Positions 3,494 to 21,977 of a stretch of DNA of 64,000 nucleotides are shown here, in pieces. Position 1 is the first letter of the stretch. Each line of letters opens with the position of its first letter. The stretch covers positions 8,678-72,677 of the forward strand of contig DATAIT010000031.1 of assembly GCA_036262515.1 (NCBI GenBank). Reading direction: 5' to 3'. The stretch is from Acidimicrobiales bacterium (GTDB lineage Bacteria; Actinomycetota; Acidimicrobiia; Acidimicrobiales; GCA-2861595). A model generated the notes under the pieces. The model was given only the letters and a program-made list of their open reading frames with translations. It was not told where the DNA came from and made no database searches. Made by a program: the position numbers and the translations under genes.

Positions 3494-4352
3494 TAGGTGC
3501 TCGGGCTGTGCCGGATCAGGAAGTCGACCATCGTGTCGACGACGGCGCGACTCATCTCGTGGCCGGTTCTCGGCACGACGCCGAGCTCGCCCGTCGGAAG
3601 GCTCCGATACACCAGGCCCGCCCCTTCGGCGCTGCAAGACATGTCACGGTCGCCCGTGAGGATGAGCGTGGGGACGGCGATGTCGGCGAAGTCGGCGACT
3701 GAGTAGCCCAGCGGGGCGACGCCGCGGTCGAAGAAGAGTCGGAGGTCTCCCGCCAGTGACCCTCGCCCTGGGCACCGTCGTAGTCGGCCTTCATCGTGGC
3801 GAACATCGCCGCCATCACCGGCGACATGGACTGGATCGTGCGCTCGGCGGCATCGGGGTCCGCTGCGGTGGCATCAGGACGGCCGCCGAAGATGGGGCGG
3901 ATGGTCTGGTGGGCCATGGCATGGGGGTCGAACACGTCGAAGCCGGCGTGGTTGACGAGGGCCCGCACCAGGTCGGGACGCCTGAGGGCCACGACGGTGG
4001 CCGTCGTCCCGCCCTCGCTGAACCCTGCGAACAGCGGCCGGTCGAGCCCGAGGGCGGTCACGAGGGCGACGACGTCGTCGGCCAGGACGTCGAAGGTCGC
4101 CGTCCCGCCCGCGTGCACCGTCGCACCCGAACCCCGTGTGTCGGGGGCGATGACGCGGAAATGCTCCCCGAGCGCGCCGAGATGGTCGACGTGCGCGGCC
4201 GGCGAACCGGCCCACCCCGGTCCCGTCGAGACCAGGCCGCCGTGGAGCAGCATCAGGGGCGGGCCGTCGCCGACGTCGGTGTAGGCGATGTCGATCCCGT
4301 TCGCTCGGATCAGCTTGGCGCCGCGCTCTGCGGCGACGTCGGCGATGGTCAT
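3494..4352 (-). pseudogene. alpha/beta hydrolase gene with a frameshift near 3760
   Basis: ATG 4352 follows GGGAGGG. The N-part reads MTIADVAAERGAKLIRANGIDIAYTDVGDGPPLMLLHGG...FAGFSEGG (nucleophile elbow). The C-part is found only in another frame by own translation: SLAGDLRLFFDRGVAPLGYSVADFADIAVPTLILTGDRDMSCSAEGAGLVYRSLPTGELGVVPRTGHEMSRAVVDTMVDFLIRHSPST, stop 3494-3496. The shift falls in a C3 run at 3760-3762. Confidence 0.6.
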
Positions 4353-4389: not shown

Positions 4390-5796
4390 TCATCCGACGG
4401 TGAAGTCGACCGAGGCCGTGGCGTCGTCCCGCAGGACGAGCTTGTACGCGCCCTGCGGAGGATCGTCCACGAGGTACGACGCTCGGAAATCCACGGCCGG
4501 CTTGTCCGGGTAGGGCAGCTCGTTGAGGCTGTCGGCGGCGACGGTCGTACCGTCGGGGAGCGTGACGACGATGGTGCCGTTGAACACGTTCTGCCCGTAG
4601 GGGACGGTGGTGGCGATGCTGGCGAAGTCGACGACCAGGAACCGGTGGCCGCGTGGCGCCTGACGGTACCCACCGGCCAATGGGTCGTCGGCCCTGGCCT
4701 CGGCCCTGCGCACGTCCAGCGTGAGCCGTCCCGCCGAAAGGCGAGTGGCGGCGAAGACCACCGGTACCGGCTCGAGGCTGGCCACCGTTCCGGCTGAGCC
4801 GAGCGGCACGACGGCCTGGTTCCGGTCCGACGCTCCGAAGGTGACCACGGCGTCGCCGAGCGAGAAGTCGTTCCCGACCTCGAACGACAGCGTGCCCTTG
4901 CCGGTCGAACGCCCGGGCACCGTCGGGAGGTCGCTGGAGTAGGCCAGCTCATGGCTGCGGCTGTGGGATTCGACGAAGATCGTCCGCTCGAGCACGACGT
5001 CCTGGTCGCCCTGGTTCTCGAGGGACGCGGCCACGTCGAGCCGGCGCACATCGCCGACCGTGTGCAGGACGGCCCGCTGGAGCGTGATCTTGAACCCTGC
5101 GTACCAGAGGGACCTGCCCATCTCGACCTCGGCGTCGCGACCGCGCACCGACGACGCGGCATGCGTCGTCTCCGGACTGGTGGCGTCGTCGACGAACCGG
5201 TTGACCACGAGGCTGGCGGCGGCCAGACCCACCAGCAGGACGACGAGCCGTGGCCCACCGTACGAGCGGCGTCGCCGTGGTAGAGCCGGCGGTGGTTCGG
5301 GAGTGGGCATCGGCGCAGGGCCGGGCGGGGCTGTCGGCCCGAGCAGCTCTTCGAGCCGGGCGATGAGACGACCCACGTCGTAGTCCCACCGGTCGTCGCT
5401 CAGTTCGATGGCCTGGCGGCGCCCGAGGACGGCGATCGACTCGGGAAGATCGGACGGCCCCGGCGGCCCCGCCCCTTCGACCAGGACCGGGATGACGTCG
5501 ATCCCCTTGTGCAACGCCGACGCGATCTCGAGGCGCACGAAGTCGCCGGGATCGTCGAGGCGCCGACGACCCGACGTGTCGGTGATCGTGAGCCAGTCCT
5601 TCCCGATCAGGGCGATGACCGCTCCAGAGCCCGCGACGGCCGCCTCGATGGTGGCGACGAAGTCGGCGCCGGGGCGGATGGCGTCGATGTCCCGGAACAC
5701 GCCGTCGTCCCCGAAGCGGTGGCGCAGCGCATCGTCCAGCCGCCCTCCGTATCCCGACGTGTCGTCACGGCGGTAGCTGATGAAGACCGGTTTCAC
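4390..5796 (-). CDS. membrane-anchored TIR domain protein with an extracytoplasmic beta-rich C-terminal region
   Basis: GTG start 5796 overlaps the CHAT stop (GTGA 5793-5796). Residues 1-150 are TIR_2-like: VFISYRRDD, conserved Glu in DFVRLEIASAL (E90, codon 5527-5529). Then a Pro-rich linker, RRRR, and one TM helix (LVVLLVGLAAASLVVN). The C-terminal region of about 230 aa forms two beta-rich repeats resembling DUF4352-type sandwiches (tentative). Confidence 0.9.
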   Translation of the reverse strand: MKPVFISYRRDDTSGYGGRLDDALRHRFGDDGVFRDIDAIRPGADFVATIEAAVAGSGAVIALIGKDWLTITDTSGRRRLDDPGDFVRLEIASALHKGIDVIPVLVEGAGPPGPSDLPESIAVLGRRQAIELSDDRWDYDVGRLIARLEELLGPTAPPGPAPMPTPEPPPALPRRRRSYGGPRLVVLLVGLAAASLVVNRFVDDATSPETTHAASSVRGRDAEVEMGRSLWYAGFKITLQRAVLHTVGDVRRLDVAASLENQGDQDVVLERTIFVESHSRSHELAYSSDLPTVPGRSTGKGTLSFEVGNDFSLGDAVVTFGASDRNQAVVPLGSAGTVASLEPVPVVFAATRLSAGRLTLDVRRAEARADDPLAGGYRQAPRGHRFLVVDFASIATTVPYGQNVFNGTIVVTLPDGTTVAADSLNELPYPDKPAVDFRASYLVDDPPQGAYKLVLRDDATASVDFTVG

Positions 5797-8744
5797 GCCG
5801 GGCCCACGGTGCCGGCCCCACCGGCCACCCCGCGGGCGGCGCCCGGCAGGAGCGACCTGGCCAGGTCGGTGAGGCTCGAGCCGCGTTGCAGCTCGCCGAC
5901 GTCGCGCAGGTGGTCGACGACGGTGTCCCGGTCGCGGCGGCTGGAGCGCGTGGCGAAGGCGTCCAGGTACAGCCCCTCGAGCCGGTGAAGATCCGCCGGC
6001 TCTCCGAGCAGGTAGCGCGTGAGCGCCAGGTCGGCCAGCATCACGCGCTGCCAGAAGTCCTCCGGGTCGAGCGCCTTCGCCTCAGCGCGATCGGTCCCCC
6101 CGGTCGCATCCCCGGGCCCTGCCGCCGCCCGTCCCGGAGACGGCGGCTCCACCGCCGCCAGCGCAGCCCGGGCCTCGGCCTCGGGCACGGGGGCCCCGGC
6201 GAGCGCGTGCATCTGCAACCAGTTCAGCGCGTGGTACGGCTTGGGCCGCCCATGCTTCGAACCGAGCTCCGACGCCTCGCCATACCGACGGGCCGCCTCG
6301 GAGACGTGGCGCCGGCGCTGGTCGCCGCCCACCAGGGTCGCCGCCTTCTTGTGGAAGCTTCCCAGCAGGGCCAGCCGTTCGGGGGTCTCGCCCAGCCCCA
6401 GGGCCAACTCGAGGTGGGCCCCCGCCGCCTCCAGCAAATCACCGACCTGGGCGGCGGCGTCCGCTGCGGCGCCGGCATCGACGGCGGCGCGCACCTGCTG
6501 CTGGGCGAGGCGCACCTCGAAGTTGCCGAGCTGCTCCAGCAGCTTCACCGGCGCCGTGTTGCTGTCGGCGTGGTCCCACGCCCGCCGGTAGCACTCCACC
6601 GCCTGGGCGTAGGCGCCGAGCTCCCCGTAGGCCAGGCCAAACTCGTACAGGACCGGCGGGACGTCCCACCCGCTGGTGGCGAGCCGGCGGCGATGGCCGT
6701 CGAGCTCGGCCACGAGCGCCCGGCCGCGCGTGGACAGCTCCTCGAAGTCGGGGAGCCCGATCTTCCCGGCGAGCACGGTGATCGTTCGCAGTCGCCGCAC
6801 GAGCTCGCCGGCACTGACCATGTGGTGCTCGGCTTCCGCAGCGGCGCCGGCGCTGAAGAGGCGGTACCCGGGATCGCCGTAGCACTGGAACGCCGCCCAC
6901 GTGGTCGACGCCGGGTACCGGCGGTGGACCATCTCGCGCCCGGTCTGGACGGCGGCGCCGAAGAGGGCTCCGCCGAGGAGCTCCTCGTAGAAGGTCTCGG
7001 CGAAGACCACGGCCGCGTCGTCGTCGACGGCCCAACCGGCGGCCACCACGGCGTGGACTCCCAGGCACATGAGCTCGCGCGCCACGCTGGCCGCGAGGCG
7101 GTGCCGGTCCGTCGGTGCGTTCGAGCGGTCGTCGACCCGGGCCAGGTGACAGCAGTTGAGGAACACCAGCTCGGGAACAGCGGGAAGCTGGCGGACCACG
7201 TTGGCGGTGATGGCGGTCTCGCCGTCGATCACCACCCCCGAGGCGGCGGGATCGGCCGGCTCGAAGACCCCGTGGGCGGCGATGTGGACGACCCGCCACT
7301 CGGCGGAGAACAGTGCGTCGAGCACCCGGCGGCCGGTGGTGCCGGTGAGCTGCGGGAACGAGTCGAGCACCGGGTCACCGTGCTCGTCCCACACGAGCGC
7401 AGAGACGTCGAACTTCCTCCCCAGCGCCGCCGAAACGGCTGCCCCTTCGCGCCCCGCCCCCGGCAGCCCGCTCGCTCCTGGCGGCGGCGGCGGATTGCCC
7501 ACCACGAGCACACGCGACCCGACCGGCGGCCGGGCCGGCAGGCGCGACCGCTCCATGTCGCGGAACTGGCGGAGGAACCCGCCGCGCAGCGCCAGCTCGC
7601 TGGCCCGGCGGCCCCCGAAGCGGGCCGTGAGCGCCTCCCACGGAAGGTCGGCCGTGTTCTCGTCGACGATCAGCTGGAGGTTGTCGCTCTTCGCCAGATC
7701 GCTCTTCAGGTCGTTCGGGAGCAGCAGCTCGTAGAGCGTGTTGCCCACCTGGCCGTCGGGCCGGGCGTCGCGGACGGCGCCTTGCACGAGGCGCTCGATG
7801 GCCCGGAGGTCGATCGCCACCTCCAGGGCCGCTGCGCGCGCCCGGCGACCGATGGCGGTGAACTCGAGCACGGCGACGGAACCGGGCCCCTCCTCCGGCG
7901 GGCCGTCGTGGCGCTCGCGGCGAGGATTGCGGATGATGACCCGCTGCCAGTCCCCCGACCGCTGGAGGCCCGACAGCGACGCGGGGAGACCTCCCTCGCG
8001 GATCCGGAGTCGCTCGTGGAGGACGAGCTCGGTGTGGCCGGCCGTCCCGACCTGGGCCAGATCCCTCGACCTGCGGACGGCGTGCGCCACACGTTCGGCC
8101 CGGTCGCTGAGCACCTCCAGGAACTCCAGCCCGGCGATCCGCACGTGGTCCCAGGCCCGGATCCCGGTGACACCGTCGCGCTGCGTGTGGAGCGCCTGGT
8201 TGGCCAGGATGAGGCCGTCGACCATGGCGGCCACGCAACTCTCGACGGAGATGGCGCCGACGCCCCAGGTGCCGACGGGGACAGCCGAGACCTCGAGGGC
8301 CTGGATCGGCCGGTCGGCCTCCCCCCGGGCGAGGCGGGACTCCATCTCGCGGACCGCGTAGCAGAGCAGGCCGGCCGACACGGCGGCGGTGAGCCGGTCG
8401 CGGGTCAGCTCTCCCGGCAGGTCGAGCCCGACGACGATCGCCCCAGGCGGGTAGCCGGGCCTGCCGCCGGCCAGGCCGGGGGCGTCGACGACGATGGCGT
8501 CGCCCACCCGCTCGGGATACTGCCGGAGAAGCTGCCGGGTCGTGAGACGCCTGCCCAGTCGCTCGTCGACGAACGACTCGGCACCGCCCAACGGCGAGCC
8601 CAGGAAGTGGCCGACCAGGACGTGGCGGCCGGCGAACTCCAGGCTGGCGTGGGCGGCGGAGACGACGACGGGTTGCGGGGCCGCGCCGGGCGGCACCGCC
8701 TCGCCGCTTCCCGCCGACGTCCCGGGCGTGGTCATCGCCGTCAA
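5793..8744 (-). CDS. CHAT (caspase-fold) domain protein with C-terminal TPR-like repeats and an unassigned N-terminal region
   Basis: ORF 5793-8744 (start TTG 8744 or ATG 8735). CHAT core: VLVVGNPPPPP, WRVVHIAAHG (His codon 7272-7274), LVFLNCCHLA (Cys codons 7149-7154), AVVAAGWAVDDD, FQCYGDPGY. The C-terminal region of about 330 aa is helical and repeat-like (YEFGLAYGELGAYAQAVECYRRAW). The N-terminal region of about 370 aa has no recognised motif. Confidence 0.9.
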   Translation of the reverse strand: MTAMTTPGTSAGSGEAVPPGAAPQPVVVSAAHASLEFAGRHVLVGHFLGSPLGGAESFVDERLGRRLTTRQLLRQYPERVGDAIVVDAPGLAGGRPGYPPGAIVVGLDLPGELTRDRLTAAVSAGLLCYAVREMESRLARGEADRPIQALEVSAVPVGTWGVGAISVESCVAAMVDGLILANQALHTQRDGVTGIRAWDHVRIAGLEFLEVLSDRAERVAHAVRRSRDLAQVGTAGHTELVLHERLRIREGGLPASLSGLQRSGDWQRVIIRNPRRERHDGPPEEGPGSVAVLEFTAIGRRARAAALEVAIDLRAIERLVQGAVRDARPDGQVGNTLYELLLPNDLKSDLAKSDNLQLIVDENTADLPWEALTARFGGRRASELALRGGFLRQFRDMERSRLPARPPVGSRVLVVGNPPPPPGASGLPGAGREGAAVSAALGRKFDVSALVWDEHGDPVLDSFPQLTGTTGRRVLDALFSAEWRVVHIAAHGVFEPADPAASGVVIDGETAITANVVRQLPAVPELVFLNCCHLARVDDRSNAPTDRHRLAASVARELMCLGVHAVVAAGWAVDDDAAVVFAETFYEELLGGALFGAAVQTGREMVHRRYPASTTWAAFQCYGDPGYRLFSAGAAAEAEHHMVSAGELVRRLRTITVLAGKIGLPDFEELSTRGRALVAELDGHRRRLATSGWDVPPVLYEFGLAYGELGAYAQAVECYRRAWDHADSNTAPVKLLEQLGNFEVRLAQQQVRAAVDAGAAADAAAQVGDLLEAAGAHLELALGLGETPERLALLGSFHKKAATLVGGDQRRRHVSEAARRYGEASELGSKHGRPKPYHALNWLQMHALAGAPVPEAEARAALAAVEPPSPGRAAAGPGDATGGTDRAEAKALDPEDFWQRVMLADLALTRYLLGEPADLHRLEGLYLDAFATRSSRRDRDTVVDHLRDVGELQRGSSLTDLARSLLPGAARGVAGGAGTVGPA

Positions 8745-8864: not shown

Positions 8865-9464
8865 GTGCCGGGCGCACCTCCGACCGACCCGCGTGCGAGC
8901 TTCGATCGGGTGGTGGTCGCCGGCGGTCACATGGTCGACCGTCCCGACCGCCCTGCGCCGCGGTTCCCGGCGGGATCCGAAGGCACCGTCACCAGCGCCA
9001 TCGGCTCGACACTCGACCGCTGGGTCACCGGACGGGGAACCTTGATCGTCTGCGGCGGCGCCCGCGGGGCCGACATCATCGCCGCCGAGCAGGGGCTGGC
9101 GCGCGGTGCCGACGCATGGCTGCTCATCGCCATCCCGGAGGCCGACCACCTCGCCGGCTCGGTGGAGCTGCCCGGCACCGACTGGGCGGACCGGTACCGC
9201 AACCTCCGCCGCCGCTGCCCGACCTGGTTCCAGGACGATGAGCTGCCACCCCTCCAGCCGGGCGAGGACCCCTTCGAGCGCAACAACGAGTGGAGCCTGC
9301 GGGTCGGGATCGCCCAGGCGCCGCCCCACCAGCTGTTCGTCCTCGCCGTCTGGGACGGCGCCGGCGCCGACGGCCCCGGGGGCACCTCCCACCTGCTCGA
9401 GCGCGCGCGCGCCGCCGGAGCGACGGTGGAGACCATCCACCCGCGGACCGGCACCGCGAGCTGA
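8865..9464 (+). CDS. LOG/DprA-like (SLOG superfamily) Rossmannoid protein, uncharacterised
   Basis: GTG 8865 is the first possible start after the in-frame TAG at 8853. Two signature loops of the LOG/SLOG fold are present: LIVCGGARGADIIAAE (GGARGAD = 9054-9074) and DGPGGTSHLLERA (PGGTSHLLE = 9375-9401, like PGGxGTxxE). GC3-rich codons. Confidence 0.6.
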   Translation: MPGAPPTDPRASFDRVVVAGGHMVDRPDRPAPRFPAGSEGTVTSAIGSTLDRWVTGRGTLIVCGGARGADIIAAEQGLARGADAWLLIAIPEADHLAGSVELPGTDWADRYRNLRRRCPTWFQDDELPPLQPGEDPFERNNEWSLRVGIAQAPPHQLFVLAVWDGAGADGPGGTSHLLERARAAGATVETIHPRTGTAS

Positions 9465-9611: not shown

Positions 9612-12188
9612 TCAGCTCGGATCCAGGTCCACCACCTCGTAGGCGAACGACATGTCCTGGGCGTGCACGAATCCGTCGACCGGATGGCGCCCGATCCGGC
9701 CTGGCGCGGCACCGGCACCGAAGCGCTGATGGGGAAGAAGCGACGTCCGGTACACGCCGACGCTCGCCCCCTGGGCCGCGGCGACGATCCGATCGCCGGT
9801 GCGGACGACGGCCGCCACGGCGGCGGCCGATCCCGCTATCACGGCCGCCTGCGGCGCAGCCGCGGCCAGACCGGCGAGCGTGGCCACGGCCCCCTCGAGA
9901 TCGACGCTGCTGGCCTCGGCGACCAGGAGATCGGCGAGATCGGCCTGGCGCCCGTCGTCCTTGCCCAGCCAGATGGCGATGTCGACGAACCGCCCGACGG
10001 GGCCCTCGAAGAGGAGGAGGTCGTCGAACGGGAGCCGGTCGCCGTCCCTGGCCCGATCGATGCGCGCCGTGGCCGCCGTGTACGGCTCACCGGAGCCCTC
10101 CGGCGGCACCGTGACCACCAGGGCGTCGAGCCGCACGGCCGCCGCCAACAGAGAGCGCGTGCTGTGGACGCTGACCTCCTTCAGCCGCACGGCCACCCGA
10201 CTCGGGGCGCCGACCGCCCGAGGGACCACCAGCCGGAACGACGGGTCCGGGCGTTCGTCCACCTCGAAGTGCGGCTCGTCGACCTCACCACCGCGCTGCT
10301 CTGCGTGGAACACGAAGTCGAGGTGGTGGACGCGGTAGCGCGTGGGAACCGTCTGCTCCGTCGGCCGGGCGTCGCGGCGGCCCGTGTCGAGGTCCCGGAT
10401 GAGGCGTCCCAGCGAGGACGCCGGTTCGCCGCCGACGCCTCCGGCCTCCCGCGACCGCACGCCGGTCTGCTCGAGCCGCTCGAGCCCGTCCACCTTCGCG
10501 TCCGCCACGATGGTGACCATCGTCTCCGGGCGGGGTGCGCCGGCGGGGACGTCGTCGGGCCAGAACAGCTCGATCCCGTCGAGCCGTCCGGCCAGATCCT
10601 CTCCCAGCGTGTAGCGCTCGCCGGGCTCGAGCGTCACCCCGGCGGGCTCCGAGGCCGTCTGGACCGAGACGGCGCCCGACACCCCGACGTCGAGGACGCT
10701 GACGTACCTCCTCTCGGCCGACCCATTGCCGAAGCGGATGACGAGCCGGTCGCCGCCGAACAGGTGCTCCCCCGAACGGTCGAGCTCGGCTTCGCCGCCT
10801 CCGGGGAGAAGGCGGGCGTACGACACCTCGACCTCGTCAGGCAGGCCGGCCGGGCCGGCGCCCGACGCCAGCTCGCGCACATGGGTGGCCCGTGCCAGCT
10901 TCCGCAGGTCGTCTGCGACGAGGGTCAGCGCGCCGGGGCTCACCGGGCGTGGCGCGGTTCCGAGTGGCTGGCCGCCGGCGTCGAGGACGAGCATCCCGTT
11001 GTCATCGAGCTGGACGGTGGCCACTACCCCCGTCGGGCGTTCGGTGACGCGGACGTGGGTCGACCCACGAAGGGCGGCGGCGACACGGACCCGCTCGGGG
11101 TGGTCCAGCGGGAGGATCGCCACGGGGCGCGCACCGAGGGCGACGTCGACCGGATGGGCCGACGCCCCTGTGGGCAGTGCATCGAGGGCGATTCCCCGGA
11201 GGGCGAGCCGGGCCCGATCGCCCACGATCCGTTCGACGACCGCCGTGGCCAGGGGGTGCCGGCGGTCGCCCGACGGGCCGACGATGTCGTAGGTGTCGCC
11301 CTCGCTCATCCCGAGCAGCACGGCGCCCTCGAGCACGGCCGCCCCGCCGTCCACCACGACCGGGAGCACGCCGGTGTCGTCGCAGGTCTCCGTGGTGAAC
11401 AGAAGCCTGTTGGCCGGTCCTTCGAGCTCCGGTCGCTGCTGCGGCACGACGTCCATGACCGCGGGGCGCACCAGGTCGAGCACGGCACGCCAGGTGAGCG
11501 CCCCCGCCTGCCCGCTGGTGAGGATCGGCACGAGGGTGCTCGTCAGAGCCCCGTGCGACCCGCCGAGTGCGGTGGAGGCCAGCTCGTAGGCGCTCTCGTC
11601 GGGCGAGCACGCCACCACGCGCACGGCGAGGCGGTTGGCGTCGCCCGCGGCCAGGTCGGCTCTCGGGTCGGCACGAAGGGCCGAGAGGCGGCGCCCGACA
11701 TCGTCCCACGGGAAGGCGCCTCGCCGGTCGTCGGCCTTCGGCAGCATGGCGGGATCGCGGGACATGCGGGCCGAGTGGCAGCAGTCGAGGATGCTGGTCA
11801 CGTTGGGCGACCGCTCGGTGAGCTCGAGCTGCAGCAGACTCAGCTCCTGAGCGAGCAGGCCGCGGAAACGGCCGTTCGAGTGGTCGTCGACATCGGTGGG
11901 CACCAGGAACTGCAACCACTGCGGCTGCGCAGGATCCGACTCGACCAGCGGGTTGCGCTGGCGGCCACCGTGGCCGGAGTAATAGACGGCGGCCGCGTCG
12001 TCGCTCGCCGTGTCGTCGATGAGCCCGCGATAGCGCTCGACGATCCCGTCGTACGTCGCCTCCCGCTCGATCGCCCGGGTGACGGTGAACCCGAGCGAGG
12101 TCAACGCGTCGGCCACTACCTCGACGTCGCCGTGCACGCCGCGCAGCCCGCCGGTCTGGCTGCCGATCACGAGCGCACGCCTGGCCAT
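9612..12188 (-). CDS. caspase-fold (peptidase C14) protein with a ~600-aa uncharacterised C-terminal extension
   Basis: ATG 12188 follows GGGGAGG. N-terminal C14 core: RRALVIGSQ, AAVYYSGHGG (His73, 11970-11972), SILDCCHSA (Cys136/137, 11778-11783). The remaining ~600 aa have no TM segment and no recognised motif. Confidence 0.9.
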   Translation of the reverse strand: MARRALVIGSQTGGLRGVHGDVEVVADALTSLGFTVTRAIEREATYDGIVERYRGLIDDTASDDAAAVYYSGHGGRQRNPLVESDPAQPQWLQFLVPTDVDDHSNGRFRGLLAQELSLLQLELTERSPNVTSILDCCHSARMSRDPAMLPKADDRRGAFPWDDVGRRLSALRADPRADLAAGDANRLAVRVVACSPDESAYELASTALGGSHGALTSTLVPILTSGQAGALTWRAVLDLVRPAVMDVVPQQRPELEGPANRLLFTTETCDDTGVLPVVVDGGAAVLEGAVLLGMSEGDTYDIVGPSGDRRHPLATAVVERIVGDRARLALRGIALDALPTGASAHPVDVALGARPVAILPLDHPERVRVAAALRGSTHVRVTERPTGVVATVQLDDNGMLVLDAGGQPLGTAPRPVSPGALTLVADDLRKLARATHVRELASGAGPAGLPDEVEVSYARLLPGGGEAELDRSGEHLFGGDRLVIRFGNGSAERRYVSVLDVGVSGAVSVQTASEPAGVTLEPGERYTLGEDLAGRLDGIELFWPDDVPAGAPRPETMVTIVADAKVDGLERLEQTGVRSREAGGVGGEPASSLGRLIRDLDTGRRDARPTEQTVPTRYRVHHLDFVFHAEQRGGEVDEPHFEVDERPDPSFRLVVPRAVGAPSRVAVRLKEVSVHSTRSLLAAAVRLDALVVTVPPEGSGEPYTAATARIDRARDGDRLPFDDLLLFEGPVGRFVDIAIWLGKDDGRQADLADLLVAEASSVDLEGAVATLAGLAAAAPQAAVIAGSAAAVAAVVRTGDRIVAAAQGASVGVYRTSLLPHQRFGAGAAPGRIGRHPVDGFVHAQDMSFAYEVVDLDPS

Positions 12189-18433: not shown

Positions 18434-20779
18434 TCAGGCCGTGCGGGCGTGCTGGGCCAGGACCTTCCCCGCCCGCACCGGAGCGCTCCAGCCGTCCGGG
18501 CCATCGCGGCCGGCGGCGCACGGGCGGCCGAGCAGGTAGCCCTGGGCAGCGTCACATCCGAGGCGGCGCAGCTCGTCGAACTGCTCGGCCGTCTCGACGC
18601 CCTCGCCGACCACCTCGAGCCCGAGGGCGTGGGCCAGGCTGACGACGGCATGGACGATGGCGTGGTCCTCGGCATCGACAGCCAGGCCGTCCACGAACGT
18701 CCGGTCGATCTTGAGCGAGTCGACGGGGAAGCGCTTCAGGTAGCTGAGCGACGAATACCCGGTCCCGAAGTCGTCGATCGAGAGGCTCACGCCCAGCTGC
18801 TTCAACGCTCTAAGCGTCTCGGCTGTCGCCTCCACCTCCTCCATGAGCACGCTCTCGGTGATCTCCAGCGCCAGCGACGACGGCGAGATCCCGGCCCGCT
18901 CCAGGGCCTCGGCCACGTTCGACACGATCCCGGGATCGGTGAACTGCCGGGCCGACAGGTTCACCGCGACCTGGAGATCGTGCAGGTCCGGGTTGGCGGC
19001 CTGCCACCGCCCGAGCTGGGCGCACGCCTCGGCCAGCACCCACCGGCCGATGGGGAGGATGAGGTCCGTCTCCTCGGCCACGGAGATGAACCCGTCGGGC
19101 TGGACGAGCCCGCGATCCGGGTGCTGCCAGCGCACCAGGGCCTCGACACCCAGGAGGCGGCCGTCGCCGCAGCGGATGATGGGTTGGTAGTGCAGGATCA
19201 GCTCGTCCTGCTTCAGCGCCCGGCGCAGCGCATGCTCGATCTCGAGTCGCTCGAGGAGGCGCTCGCGCACGGCGCTGTCGAAGGCCTCGATGCGGGCCCG
19301 GCCTCGTTGCTTGGCCCGGTACATGGCGACGTCGGCATCGCGGAGCACTTCCTCCGGGTGGGCGTTGCCGGAGACGTGGGCGACGCCGATGCTGGCGGTG
19401 ATCACGGCGTCCCGGCCATAGAGCGACAAGGGCGCCTCGATGGTGCGGGCGGCGCGTTCTGCGATCTGGAGCAGCTCCTCGCCGTCGACCTGGTCGCACA
19501 CGACGACGAACTCGTCCCCCGCCAGACGGCCCACCGTGTCGTCGGGGCGGACGGCCGCCTGCAGGCGCTCGCCGATGCGTATGAGCACTTCGTCCCCCAC
19601 GGAGTGGCCCAGCGTGTCGTTGACGACCTTGAAGCGGTCCAGGTCGACGAAGAGGACGCCGACCTGCCGGGGCGGCCGGTGGCGGCGGGCGAGGGCCTGA
19701 CCGAGCCGTTCCAGCACGAGGGCCCGGTTGGGAAGACCGGTGAGGGTGTCGTGGTGCGCCTGGTGCACTGCGTCGGCGAACGCCTTGCGCATGGCCTCGA
19801 CGGCGCTGGCGTCGTTGAGGGCAAGGGACGCGTGCTCGGCGAAGGCCAGGAGCATCTCCTGCTCCGTGGAGTCGTAGCGCCGGTCGGCGTCGTGCGAAGC
19901 GACGACGAGGCTCCCGATCGGGTTGCCGTCCTGGAACACCGGCGCGCCCATGGCCGTCTTGAGGCCGTCCGTCACGAGCGGCTCCAGCGGGTGCCCGAGC
20001 CCTGCGTAGTCGTGGGTCACGACGAGTCGACCTTCCTTCACCACCAACCCGCCGACGCCCTCGTCGATGGCGCTGCGGTCGAGGGATCGGGCAAGCTCGT
20101 CCTCCATCCCCCGGGAGGACACCATGACGAGCATCAACGGGTCCTCGGGATCGAGCAGGCGGAGGCCGACGACGTCGTCGCCGAGCAGCTGGGCGGCGCC
20201 GTCGGTGATGGCATCCAGAACGTCGGCGATGGGCGCCCGGTGCGAGATCGATTGCTGGATGCGGAAGAGCCGTTCGAGCAGGTTCTGGCGCTCCTGGAGC
20301 GACGCCAGGAGGCCGGCGTTCTCCTCGGCCTGGCGCTCGCTCTCCTCGCGCGACGCCCGTTCCGCCTCGAGCGTCCGCAGCATGCGCAGCGTCAGGCTGA
20401 GGACCCTGGCCATGGCCCCGATGAGCGAGGCCTCCTGATGGGAGAAGTCGTCACCGGATCGCGCCAGCACCAGGAACGAGGACCGCTCCTCCTCCAACTC
20501 GATCGAGACGGCCCGGCACGACCCCACGCCGGGGACGTCCAGTGCGTGGAGCTCACCCGTGGTCAGCCGGCAGAGATCGCCCTCCGGCACGCGCCCGCGC
20601 GGAAAGCCGACCGACGACACCACCCGGCCGCTGCGGACCAGGGCTCCGATCTCGGCCTCGACCGCCTCCGCCATGCGTTCGACGCCGCCGGCGATCGCAG
20701 CAGCCTCGTCGGGGAACGACGAAACGGCCGCCAGGAACTCGGCCAGCTGCTGGCCGGACCAGTCGCCGTTCGGCTCCAC
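18434..20779 (-). CDS. GAF-GAF-GGDEF-EAL c-di-GMP signalling protein (GGDEF site degenerate: AGDEF)
   Basis: Start proposed at GTG 20779, 4 nt after the FIST stop; other starts are possible. GGDEF domain LTGLPNR...RPDDTVGRLAGDEFVVV. EAL domain QPII...GVEALVRW...EITES...SIDDFGTGYSSLSYL...LKIDRTFV...EGVET...QGYL. Confidence 0.9.
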   Translation of the reverse strand: MEPNGDWSGQQLAEFLAAVSSFPDEAAAIAGGVERMAEAVEAEIGALVRSGRVVSSVGFPRGRVPEGDLCRLTTGELHALDVPGVGSCRAVSIELEEERSSFLVLARSGDDFSHQEASLIGAMARVLSLTLRMLRTLEAERASREESERQAEENAGLLASLQERQNLLERLFRIQQSISHRAPIADVLDAITDGAAQLLGDDVVGLRLLDPEDPLMLVMVSSRGMEDELARSLDRSAIDEGVGGLVVKEGRLVVTHDYAGLGHPLEPLVTDGLKTAMGAPVFQDGNPIGSLVVASHDADRRYDSTEQEMLLAFAEHASLALNDASAVEAMRKAFADAVHQAHHDTLTGLPNRALVLERLGQALARRHRPPRQVGVLFVDLDRFKVVNDTLGHSVGDEVLIRIGERLQAAVRPDDTVGRLAGDEFVVVCDQVDGEELLQIAERAARTIEAPLSLYGRDAVITASIGVAHVSGNAHPEEVLRDADVAMYRAKQRGRARIEAFDSAVRERLLERLEIEHALRRALKQDELILHYQPIIRCGDGRLLGVEALVRWQHPDRGLVQPDGFISVAEETDLILPIGRWVLAEACAQLGRWQAANPDLHDLQVAVNLSARQFTDPGIVSNVAEALERAGISPSSLALEITESVLMEEVEATAETLRALKQLGVSLSIDDFGTGYSSLSYLKRFPVDSLKIDRTFVDGLAVDAEDHAIVHAVVSLAHALGLEVVGEGVETAEQFDELRRLGCDAAQGYLLGRPCAAGRDGPDGWSAPVRAGKVLAQHARTA

Positions 20780-20783
20780 CGGC

Positions 20784-21977
20784 CTACGCCAGCGCCAGCA
20801 CGACGAGCGTCTGGTTGTGGAAGCCGCTGATCCCGCGCGTGCGGGCGATCTCGCCGTACGTGTAGAAGCCGGCCACCGGCGCACCGCCGGCGTAGCCCGA
20901 GATCTGCTCGATCTCCCGCTCGATGCCGGCGTCGCCGAGCACGCCGCGGCGCGCGATGCAGTCGAACGCCAGGAGCCCGAGGGGCGGGCGCTCGCCAAGG
21001 CCTTCGAGAGCGGCACGGCAGGCATCGTCGGTCGCGGCCAGCACCGAGTCGTCGTCGCCCTCCATGATCCACGCCTGACCGCCGGCCGGGACCTGGGCGA
21101 TGCACGTGAGCGAGCGAGCTTCGAAGTCGGCTCCGCCGACGAAGCGCACCTCCTCACCACTCCTCCGGCTCAACCCGAGCGGATGGGTCAGGGCGAAGCG
21201 GGTGAAGGCGGCAGGGTCCGTCCGGGCGTCGTCCGGTGCGCCGAGCCGCTCGAGGTAGACGTCGAGAGCCGGGCAGCCGTCGAGCTCGTGCACGATGGTG
21301 CCCTGGCTGGCCGTCACCAGCATCGGATCCCCCACCCGCCGCCAACCGTGGCGAACCCCGATCCCGATGGGAGCGTCGGACGCGATGGCGGCGGCGACCA
21401 CGGCGTTGTCGAGCACGTCGGTCCCGTGGAGCTGGAACGTCGCCTTCATCTTCAGCCCGTCGCCGGCACAGCCGCCGACGAGCGGCACCTCGGCGCCGAC
21501 GGCCTGGTAGGCGCCGCGAACGACCTCCTGCTGGTCCCCGGCCAACCCGTCGGCCAGGAGGAGCAGCACCCGGTGCGACGAGGGCGCCGTCTTCTCGACG
21601 CAGGCGGCAGCGGCTGCGCTGGCGTCCCGCAGGCTCGTCCCCTCGGCACGGGCGGCGGCGGTGGCGACGGTGAAGCCCGGGCCGCCGAGCACCATGGCCA
21701 CCACGCCCGCGTCACCTGGGCCGCTGGCCGAGATCTCGCCGGCGGTGGAGCAGCCCACGAGCGGCACGCCGGGTGCGACGTCGGCGATCCCGCCGAGCAA
21801 CGCGCCGAGGTCGTAGCGGTCCGAGGTGAAGACGATCACCAGACGCGCGTCGTCGCCCTGCATCGCCTCACGGGCGGCGTTCGCACCGGCCGAGCGCGAG
21901 TCGTCGTCGTCGCTGCGGCCGACGCCCAGCCAGCGTGCTCGGATGTCCACCTCGGGGTGCTCTTGAAGCCAGGTCAT
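20784..21977 (-). CDS. FIST domain signal-transduction protein
   Basis: Starts at the MTWLQEHPEV ATG at 21977 within ORF 20784-22343. FIST_N/FIST_C-type blocks: LVIVFTSDRYDLGALLGG, PLVGCSTAGEI, VPLVGGCAGDG, FDCIARRGVLG, APVAGFYTYGEI. Confidence 0.85.
   Translation of the reverse strand: MTWLQEHPEVDIRARWLGVGRSDDDDSRSAGANAAREAMQGDDARLVIVFTSDRYDLGALLGGIADVAPGVPLVGCSTAGEISASGPGDAGVVAMVLGGPGFTVATAAARAEGTSLRDASAAAAACVEKTAPSSHRVLLLLADGLAGDQQEVVRGAYQAVGAEVPLVGGCAGDGLKMKATFQLHGTDVLDNAVVAAAIASDAPIGIGVRHGWRRVGDPMLVTASQGTIVHELDGCPALDVYLERLGAPDDARTDPAAFTRFALTHPLGLSRRSGEEVRFVGGADFEARSLTCIAQVPAGGQAWIMEGDDDSVLAATDDACRAALEGLGERPPLGLLAFDCIARRGVLGDAGIEREIEQISGYAGGAPVAGFYTYGEIARTRGISGFHNQTLVVLALA

Follow-up and report, generated by a model that had tools for sequence, protein, structure and literature searches.

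Among the Thoeris systems, type VII consists of a TIR protein and a SLATT protein and uses canonical cyclic ADP-ribose (cADPR), type VIII consists of a TIR protein and ThsI, an effector containing TPR repeats that are presumed to perceive cADPR, and type IV consists of a TIR protein and a caspase-like protease and uses N7-cADPR (bioRxiv 10.64898/2025.12.03.692087). In type III-B CRISPR, a cascade runs from a SAVED-CHAT protease to PCaspase (bioRxiv 10.1101/2024.10.24.620036). A 2024 survey of Escherichia coli reported that transmembrane (TM) features like those of Toll-like receptors (TLRs) are seemingly absent from bacterial TIR systems (PMC11350192). In an amoeba, the TIR NADase TirC is tethered by a TM helix and is toxic once this helix is removed, and proteolytic release was proposed by its authors as the trigger (PMC13142454). 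Here, we describe a gene found in a stretch of 64,000 nucleotides from an Acidimicrobiales bacterium (GenBank assembly GCA_036262515.1, contig DATAIT010000031.1, positions 8,678 to 72,677), hereafter called the window. Its product, P0001, combines an N-terminal TIR domain with a predicted TM helix and a C-terminal module predicted to lie outside the cytoplasm (the ectodomain).

Like a Thoeris locus, this one places a gene for an enzyme-type TIR protein beside a gene joining a presumed ligand sensor (TPR-S) to a death-type effector (the caspase-fold protease CHAT), and relatives of the window's TIR adjoin genes encoding SLATT and MAP3K_TRAF_bd+TPR-S proteins. It differs in that the TIR here is predicted to be membrane-tethered with an ectodomain of 245 amino acids (aa), whereas accounts of ThsB proteins treat them as cytoplasmic; in that the effector is made of CHAT and TPR-S, a combination not named in the Thoeris accounts examined; and in that curated Thoeris models leave P0001 unmatched. 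A membrane-tethered ThsB with an ectodomain was not described in the Thoeris literature examined. Searches of the literature on TPR-S and on membrane-anchored bacterial TIRs yielded no description of the TIR-TM-X class (a TIR, a TM segment and a variable tail) to which P0001 belongs, and a broad TIR survey makes no mention of a TIR-TM-ectodomain architecture. The resemblance to TirC of Dictyostelium lies in a TIR NADase held at the membrane by one helix, a tether that was proposed to restrain activity; unlike P0001, TirC has its helix at the N-terminus, lacks an ectodomain and is a eukaryotic protein derived from a TIR-STING lineage (PMC13142454). The TIR protein of the window would thus be a signaller of the Thoeris kind that is tethered to the membrane, bears an ectodomain and has a TPR-S-CHAT effector as its partner.

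P0001 is predicted to be a single-pass membrane protein with a SARM1-like TIR

The TIR-TM-ectodomain gene occupies window positions 4390-5796 on the minus strand, starts with GTG and encodes 468 aa. The span given in a preliminary description of this DNA was correct, and the strand has been corrected to minus, the plus-strand translation being riddled with stops. The G+C content at the three codon positions (0.76/0.55/0.82) fits a genome of 72% G+C, so that the open reading frame was read as a real gene. The GTG start was confirmed by the homologues, which begin at the same motif (M/V-x-x-I-F-I-S-Y-R-R). Scanning for promoters and terminators found nothing, as expected at 72% G+C. All four elements of the preliminary description (a TIR, a Pro-rich linker, RRRR with a hydrophobic helix, and a beta-rich C-terminal region) were present, with the corrections given where they arise, and were mapped as follows.

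5341..5796, minus strand: TIR domain, residues 1-152, SARM1-like enzyme type (Pfam, phmmer, Foldseek)
5527-5529, minus strand: codon of E90, the catalytic Glu position (alignment with SARM1)
5248..5340, minus strand: disordered Pro-rich cytoplasmic linker ending in RRRR..R, residues 153-183 (sequence, predicted local distance difference test (pLDDT))
5191..5247, minus strand: predicted single TM helix or signal anchor, residues 184-202, LVVLLVGLAAASLVVNRFV (hydropathy, AlphaFold2)
5134..5190, minus strand: acidic disordered juxtamembrane linker on the predicted outer side, residues 203-221 (sequence, pLDDT)
4804..5133, minus strand: beta-sandwich 1, residues 222-331, opening with W-Y-A-G-F-K-I-T-L (AlphaFold2, pLDDT ~97)
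4393..4767, minus strand: beta-sandwich 2, residues 344-468, with a conserved L-P-D-G-T motif (AlphaFold2, alignment)
4390-4392, minus strand: stop codon (sequence)

The N-terminal TIR of about 150 aa, described earlier with a conserved Glu in RLEIASAL, was recovered by Pfam as TIR_2 on residues 4-144 (46.2 bits, cut-off 28). A phmmer search against all PDB sequences matched SARM1 TIR domains only; 'DFVRLEIASAL' of P0001 was aligned with 'DWVHKEIVTAL' of SARM1, which put E90 on the SARM1 catalytic Glu. This residue is E642, the established catalytic residue of SARM1, for which a structure entry is titled 'Sarm1 E642A'. Across 124 related TIR domains E90 was retained in 99%, and about 45 other positions were at least 85% conserved. 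The full-length AlphaFold2 model had a pLDDT of 89.5, with values of about 90-98 in the TIR region. Foldseek ranked some 34 entries of SARM1 and Caenorhabditis elegans TIR-1 at the top, with SPARTA, plant TIRs and AbTir lower, and superposed P0001 on SARM1 TIRs with a target-based template modelling score (TMt) of 0.85-0.88 and a root-mean-square deviation of ~2-2.7 Å (~2-3 Å across the top-ranked entries). Because E90 is conserved and SARM1 is the nearest structure, the domain is predicted to be of the enzyme type, SARM1-like, and not of the TLR scaffold type. Human SARM1 is thus the closest solved structure by both sequence and fold; it has FISYRR at its start and the catalytic Glu motif in common with P0001, at 26% identity. 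It differs in that ARM and SAM domains regulate a soluble or mitochondria-associated octamer, where regulation of P0001 would fall to its TM helix and ectodomain.

The Pro-rich linker PTAPPGPAPMPTPEPPPALP and the RRRR that follows the TIR, both noted before, can be read directly in the sequence; residues 174-185 had a pLDDT below 50 and no secondary structure was drawn for them by AlphaFold2. Directly behind RRRR, the single hydrophobic helix of the preliminary description coincides with the Kyte-Doolittle 19-mer maximum of the whole protein (2.27 at residues 184-202) and with a lone AlphaFold2 helix at 185-202, flanked by two low-confidence disordered linkers; the uninterrupted core of the segment, L184-V198, has a summed Hessa-scale value of -2.4. 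The juxtamembrane sequence DDATSPETTHAASSVRGRD places DD and an acidic stretch directly after the TM segment, and residues 199-218 again had a pLDDT below 50. Five K/R residues precede the segment and a net charge of -3 follows it, an arrangement that agrees with the positive-inside rule. An equivalent hydrophobic segment was found in P0006-P0010 and P0013: in these six full-length homologues it stands at the same position, is unrelated in sequence and has a basic cluster ahead of it. In 94 TM-bearing relatives, the mean number of K and R residues was 3.7 before the segment vs 1.4 after it. The recurrence of a TM segment and basic cluster that are not conserved in sequence, together with a module that is mostly found on lipoproteins elsewhere, supports the topology proposed earlier, with the TIR inside and the beta domains outside; the earlier interpretation as a whole is supported in part. 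Pfam, hydropathy and the structure models concur on the architecture. P0001 very probably crosses the membrane once, as a type-II protein whose SARM1-like TIR lies in the cytoplasm and is followed by a Pro-rich linker and basic cluster, one TM helix and two immunoglobulin (Ig)-like sandwiches outside.

Relatives of the C-terminal module are mainly lipoproteins

The structure of residues 206-468 was modelled on an alignment of 96 sequences (pLDDT 94.4, predicted template modelling score 0.88). The model was all-beta and comprised two domains, ~222-331 and 344-467, in a module that makes up the C-terminal ~245 aa, in agreement with the two beta-sandwich domains foreseen for this region. Domain 1 has the family consensus WxAGFKVTL...ENLG...VPG and domain 2 the conserved module columns P209/G211/F236/G244/Y246. 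The two halves, called repeats earlier, were only weakly alike in a profile-profile comparison by hhalign (E 2e-4, probability 46%).

The same region had been likened to DUF4352-type sandwiches, a comparison that probably holds at the level of fold and fails at the level of sequence. Pfam searches of residues 206-468, even at E<=10, gave no DUF4352 and only a sub-threshold SH3_12, and Pfam found no match on the lipoprotein relatives of the module. Foldseek matches in the PDB were the tandem fibronectin type III protein RbmA and the single-domain entries 4eae, 4les, 5bxg, YcdA (4r4g) and YjhA (3cfu), these last five being uncharacterised exported proteins or lipoproteins of Firmicutes. Scores against the DUF4352-type entries reached a probability of 1.0 but were weak (E 1.7e-3 to 3e-2, TMt 0.45-0.53). 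Matches in a viral library comprised several proteins with DUF4352 or DUF5067 and a lipoprotein of a Rhodococcus phage, the best match, to DUF4352, having an E value of 1.5e-6. The module resembles the DUF4352 family (PF11611, which includes Bacillus subtilis YjhA and YcdA and phage proteins) in its predicted beta-sandwich fold, to judge from these weak scores, and in that most of its relatives are lipoproteins; it differs in lacking a Pfam sequence match, in being a tandem pair and in being anchored in P0001 by a TM helix rather than by lipid.

A phmmer/HMMER search over 1.84 billion representatives gave 309 relatives of the module at E<=1e-3, 154 of them at E<=1e-10, and N-terminal features were judged for 150 representatives of the 309. 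A signal peptide with a lipobox Cys was present in 107 of the 150. Eleven had a long cytoplasmic domain (TIR or Hsp70-like) followed by a TM segment, four a plain hydrophobic anchor without lipobox, nine another N-terminal feature and one a long N-terminal domain with no TM segment by the threshold used; the remaining 18 were N-truncated and could not be judged. Since 107 of the 150 carry a signal peptide and lipobox, the module is predicted to be extracytoplasmic. The same taxonomic order also includes a lipoprotein form of the module, 40% identical. P0001 itself has no Cys ahead of the module, its anchor being the internal TM segment after the TIR and not a lipobox. From these sequence comparisons, the module is almost certainly an exported domain, here predicted to hang from a TM helix, and is assigned to an un-named family whose other members are mainly actinobacterial lipoproteins. 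In the module tree the TIR-fused modules fell into two clusters, but they may have a single origin.

A second kind of protein with a cytoplasmic domain, a TM segment and this module was observed in P0192, P0193, P0194, P0247 and P0270, in which a TM segment links the same Ig-like module with Hsp70/actin-like ATPase domains.

TIR-TM-ectodomain proteins form a large class

A word-indexed search with P0001 gave 2,904 matches, only six of which were full-length (38-57% identity); the others share the TIR alone, at 45-67% identity. The tails joined to these related TIRs were PASTA, TolB/PD40 propellers, SPOR, NHL, TPR, FGE-sulfatase, FHA and un-named domains. A TM segment followed the TIR in 94 of the 121 closest TIR relatives and in 17 of 20 genome copies from five phylum-level groups, with copies in Acidimicrobiia, Thermoleophilaceae, Bryobacterales, Pyrinomonadaceae and Sedimenticolaceae among them. 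Among the full-length homologues, conservation was 51-69% in the TIR, 30-64% in the ectodomain and lowest in the linker and TM segment. The subfamily is patchy, occurring in 10 of 301 genomes of the class and 4 of 41 relatives and being absent from two of three congeners; where present it is often multi-copy. The source genome (G000; 3.4 Mb, 129 contigs) holds three TIR_2 genes, all of them TIR-TM-X. To judge from these sequences, the TIR-TM-ectodomain layout represents a large bacterial class and not a rarity. It had been called unusual, which is right vs the characterised bacterial TIR systems (PMC11350192) but not in sequence space, where it is the default of the subfamily.

The two paralogues were located at G000:C88:4774-6666 on the plus strand (L004), encoding TIR-TM-PASTAx2 and a C-terminal beta domain (630 aa, 68% TIR identity), and at about G000:C64 4161-5190 on the minus strand (L005), encoding TIR-TM and a small Cys-containing domain. 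Within the window, positions 380-1528 on the plus strand encode a beta-propeller protein of the PD40/TolB-like kind, which begins with a signal-like segment, and a propeller of this kind also serves as the ectodomain of TIR-TM proteins such as P0022.

The resemblance to animal Toll and TLR proteins suggested earlier extends to a predicted single-pass layout in which the TIR faces inward and a sensor-like domain outward. It does not extend to domain order, which is reversed in P0001 (N-terminal TIR, type II) relative to TLRs (N-terminal ectodomain of leucine-rich repeats, type I), nor to the ectodomain, which consists of Ig-like sandwiches instead of leucine-rich repeats, nor to the TIR, which is of the SARM1 enzyme type and not of the adaptor-recruiting scaffold type. 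The likeness is one of architecture, without sign of common descent. Actinobacterial PASTA Ser/Thr kinases of the PknB type offer another parallel: a cytoplasmic signalling domain, a linker, one TM segment and an extracytoplasmic wall-associated domain, and the TIR-TM-PASTAx2 paralogue brings PASTA itself into the same genome. P0001 differs from these kinases in having a TIR as its output domain and an ectodomain other than PASTA.

The TIR gene overlaps a CHAT-TPR-S gene, and its relatives recur beside TPR-S genes

The genes around the TIR gene in the window are the following.

5793..8744, minus strand: CHAT (caspase-fold) protease with C-terminal TPR-S, 983 aa, proposed partner and effector (Pfam)
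8865..9464, plus strand: SLOG-like protein, a weak assignment, 199 aa, divergent (YAcAr E 0.0057, below cut-off)
9612..12188, minus strand: caspase (Peptidase_C14), 858 aa, possible downstream executioner protease (Pfam, 49.7 bits)
3750..4352, minus strand: alpha/beta-hydrolase, 37 nt downstream of the TIR gene, membership in the system uncertain (Abhydrolase_1, 62 bits)

In the 983-aa product of the upstream gene, Pfam recognised CHAT with 106 bits (residues 333-624) and TPR-S with 42.4 bits (712-845), and the His/Cys dyad can be recognised in the motifs HIAAHG and NCCH. The GTG start of the TIR gene (5794-5796) overlaps the TGA stop of this gene in a 4-nt GTGA (junction GCGTGAAACCG), an overlap that suggests co-expression of CHAT-TPR-S and TIR. 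An operon pairing of the TIR gene with an effector bearing a presumed signal-sensing domain is therefore present, in the form of CHAT-TPR-S. The combination is rare (3 of 401 genomes of the class), and its distant relatives are giant fusions that have no TIR neighbour. In G011, which represents another genus of the same family, orthologues of the island were found for the caspase (69% identity), the SLOG-like protein (63%) and CHAT-TPR-S (68%), the SLOG-like orthologue adjoining the CHAT orthologue.

Linkage was then followed in eight further TIR-TM-X loci, and TPR-S (PF20308) was searched for in 13 genomes holding the TIR subfamily. A DUF4231/SLATT_3 gene stood directly downstream in five of the eight loci. 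One of the eight, from a metagenome, brought together TIR-TM, DUF4231/SLATT_3, MAP3K_TRAF_bd+TPR-S and a RyR-domain gene, and another had a TPR+CHAT gene ~4 kb from the TIR-TM-X gene. In six of the 13 genomes (G000, G002, G204, G247 (twice), G266 and G290), a TPR-S gene lay 0.4-4 kb from the TIR gene; as these genomes hold one or two TPR-S genes per ~3 Mb, chance proximity is estimated at roughly 1% per genome. The fusion partners of TPR-S vary between CHAT, Trypsin_2 and MAP3K_TRAF_bd, and because they differ beside the same TIR subfamily, the sequences suggest that TPR-S acts as a common receiver that is mounted on various effectors.

A conserved operon of the genus g107 (G290:C51:1500-11000, L058; also L056, L057 and L059) contains six kinds of gene in order: a polytopic TM protein, TIR_2-TM-Big_9-TPR, a lipoprotein, an alpha/beta hydrolase, TPR-S+Trypsin_2 and Peptidase_M15_4+PG_binding_1. 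G002, from the window's own genus, has a string (G002:C19:31000-40000, L055) of a TIR+beta-sandwich protein without TM, DUF4231/SLATT_3, SLATT_1 and MAP3K_TRAF_bd+TPR-S, which by analogy looks like a combined type VII/VIII Thoeris.

Further observations were made around these loci. In some g107 genomes, a second short TIR-TM gene follows the operon. The g107 lipoproteins were considered as homologues of the module and rejected, their 13-18 bit matches being attributed to the signal-peptide columns of the profile. Patatin phospholipase genes lie just upstream of several TIR-TM + DUF4231/SLATT cassettes (L047-L051). In G011 (G011:C342:1-14751; L012, L018), M15/PG_binding-like and lipase-like genes stand between the SLOG-like gene and the caspase, and a different TIR-like protein ('FISHRHED…', 435 aa) adjoins the caspase. 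In the window, the hydrolase region (3552-4352, minus strand) shows a frame change near 3700-3750, so that the C-terminal part (…PTLILTGDRD…GHEMS…) is read in a different frame from the N-terminal part (Abhydrolase_1); the gene is either a pseudogene or misassembled. Positions 18434-21169 on the minus strand, some 12 kb away from the island, encode a 911-aa GAF-GGDEF-EAL protein (cyclic di-GMP turnover).

A proposed Thoeris-like pathway and its alternatives

The recurrence of the TIR subfamily beside TPR-S, together with the GTGA overlap, led us to propose a pathway from TIR to TPR-S-CHAT. Judged by gene linkage, P0001 is probably the ThsB-like TIR of a Thoeris-like module whose receiver is the translationally coupled CHAT-TPR-S protease. 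Clustered TIRs would cleave NAD+ to give an ADP-ribose-derived signal, a cADPR-type molecule being the best guess; the TPR-S domain would perceive this signal and switch on the CHAT protease, which may then process the neighbouring caspase. We suggest more tentatively, as a possibility drawn from analogy with kinase-TM-PASTA sensors and with TIR NADases, whose activation depends on oligomerisation, that the ectodomain controls TIR clustering on an envelope cue, for which fragments of the wall, phages that adsorb or damage to the envelope would be candidates. The whole combination of a tethered Thoeris-like TIR, a TPR-S-CHAT receiver and control by the ectodomain is the best explanation we can offer, and one in which our confidence falls a little short of even.

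Several observations weigh against it. In G011, an unrelated lipoprotein and not a TIR overlaps the CHAT-TPR-S stop at the same position, and because CHAT-TPR-S precedes a lipoprotein there, the TIR/CHAT-TPR-S pairing in the window may be recent or fortuitous. The closest full-length homologues, P0009, P0010 and P0011, have no CHAT or TPR-S neighbour. Four of the six genomes with TPR-S linkage belong to one genus, which reduces the linkage to ~3-4 independent lineages. No SLATT/DUF4231 gene was found in the source genome, in a search for DUF4231 that was silent in control genomes too and is possibly insensitive. P0001 did not match the NCBIfam model Thoeris_type3_ThcB4 (24.1 bits vs a cut-off of 220), and its match to PADLOC ThsB1 was partial (E 9e-4 over 60 residues only). 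As regards the membrane tether, the uninterrupted hydrophobic core, L184-V198, has only 15 residues and is shorter than the cores of the homologues. Finally, P0011 and P0012 carry the same two-sandwich module on a TIR with no TM helix, and because of these fusions an outside location is predicted not to be obligatory for the C-terminal module.

P0011 and P0012 (L003 8001-9233) could be cytoplasmic variants or products of TM loss. The G011 lipoprotein was compared with the module and rejected as a homologue (hhalign probability 4%). P0001 was likewise rejected as a catalogued defence protein, PADLOC and NCBIfam giving only weak partial TIR matches.

The alternative that survives best, and that we nevertheless consider unlikely, is a stand-alone effector or sensor that depletes NAD+ without a second messenger, in abortive infection or dormancy, with the CHAT-TPR-S adjacency a coincidence. 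The genes of the full-length homologues stand alone, in surroundings of a housekeeping kind; SARM1, to which the TIR is closest, is a consumer of NAD+; and the Thoeris preprint cautions that unverified TIRs may be NAD+-depleting effectors (bioRxiv 10.64898/2025.12.03.692087). Against it stand the repeated linkage of the subfamily to TPR-S and SLATT genes and the co-expression with CHAT-TPR-S indicated by the 4-nt overlap.

The signal might also run in reverse, which we regard as improbable: the tether would act as a safety catch that holds the TIR in a monomeric, harmless state, and the ectodomain would do no more than anchor or localise the protein, while CHAT-TPR-S would sense the cue and cut the Pro-rich/RRRR linker, so that the freed TIR oligomerises and drains NAD+. 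This order of events would suit a gene pair led by CHAT, with the TIR gene translationally coupled behind it, and also the long disordered linker with its Arg cluster between TIR and TM. Caspase-like proteases of Thoeris and CRISPR have been reported as possibly Arg-specific (bioRxiv 10.1101/2024.10.24.620036), and TirC provides a precedent in which proteolytic release was proposed for a tethered TIR NADase (PMC13142454). Yet most TIR-TM-X genes have no protease neighbour, the positive-inside rule already accounts for the basic cluster, the diverse ectodomains, some of them wall-binding (PASTA, SPOR), argue for more than anchoring, and TPR-S beside these TIRs is also fused to non-protease domains.

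We give an equally low probability to a role in envelope housekeeping instead of immunity, in which TIR-TM-X proteins would signal wall or growth state like PASTA kinases, reporting peptidoglycan status through NAD+-derived signals or protein interactions. The sister architectures with PASTA and SPOR, including the TIR-TM-PASTAx2 paralogue, point in this direction, as do the Peptidase_M15_4+PG_binding_1 enzyme and lipoprotein of the g107 operon and the two-component or sigma-factor genes found beside some homologues. Set against this are the very patchy, multi-copy distribution (10/301, 4/41, absent in 2/3 congeners), which is typical of accessory conflict genes, and partners that are death-type effectors (caspase-fold proteases, SLATT, patatin).

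A wholly cytoplasmic protein whose hydrophobic stretch does not span the membrane is very improbable: the 15-residue core, the TIR-module fusions P0011 and P0012 and the TM-less TIR + beta-sandwich protein of G002 would allow it, but the hydrophobic segment and basic cluster are kept in position, not sequence, across homologues, 107 of 150 relatives carry the module on a lipoprotein, and the AlphaFold2 helix is flanked by disordered linkers.

Implications

Read at its widest, the tethered Thoeris-like module would be one member of an outside-in class of immune receptors, in which interchangeable modules (tandem Ig-like, PASTA, SPOR, TolB-like or Big_9), joined to a constant SARM1-like TIR, would detect adsorbing phages or damage to the wall before the genome enters or as it does so, and the receptor would make a cADPR-type signal. 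On reading this signal, TPR-S would set off SLATT pores or proteases (CHAT and then caspase, or else trypsin). We put this generalisation forward as unlikely but worth stating: if true, Thoeris would have a branch close to the membrane that parallels TLR signalling in function and is built from the enzyme-type TIR ancestor of SARM1.

For the locus itself, the recurrent linkage to TPR-S-protease and SLATT genes outlines a concrete pathway, from ectodomain to TIR, cADPR-like signal, TPR-S and protease. CHAT-TPR-S would be a protease-coupled case for TPR-S, a domain so far only presumed to perceive cADPR. As the closest bacterial-type relative of SARM1 among solved structures, the TIR domain may inform how SARM1-type TIRs are restrained and triggered. 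In the bacterial TIR systems characterised so far, infection is sensed within the cell. If the proposed pathway is true, it would extend Thoeris to envelope surveillance, and bacteria would be seen to connect TIR enzymes with the cell exterior as well, in an arrangement whose conserved TIR and TM helix are shared by thousands of relatives.

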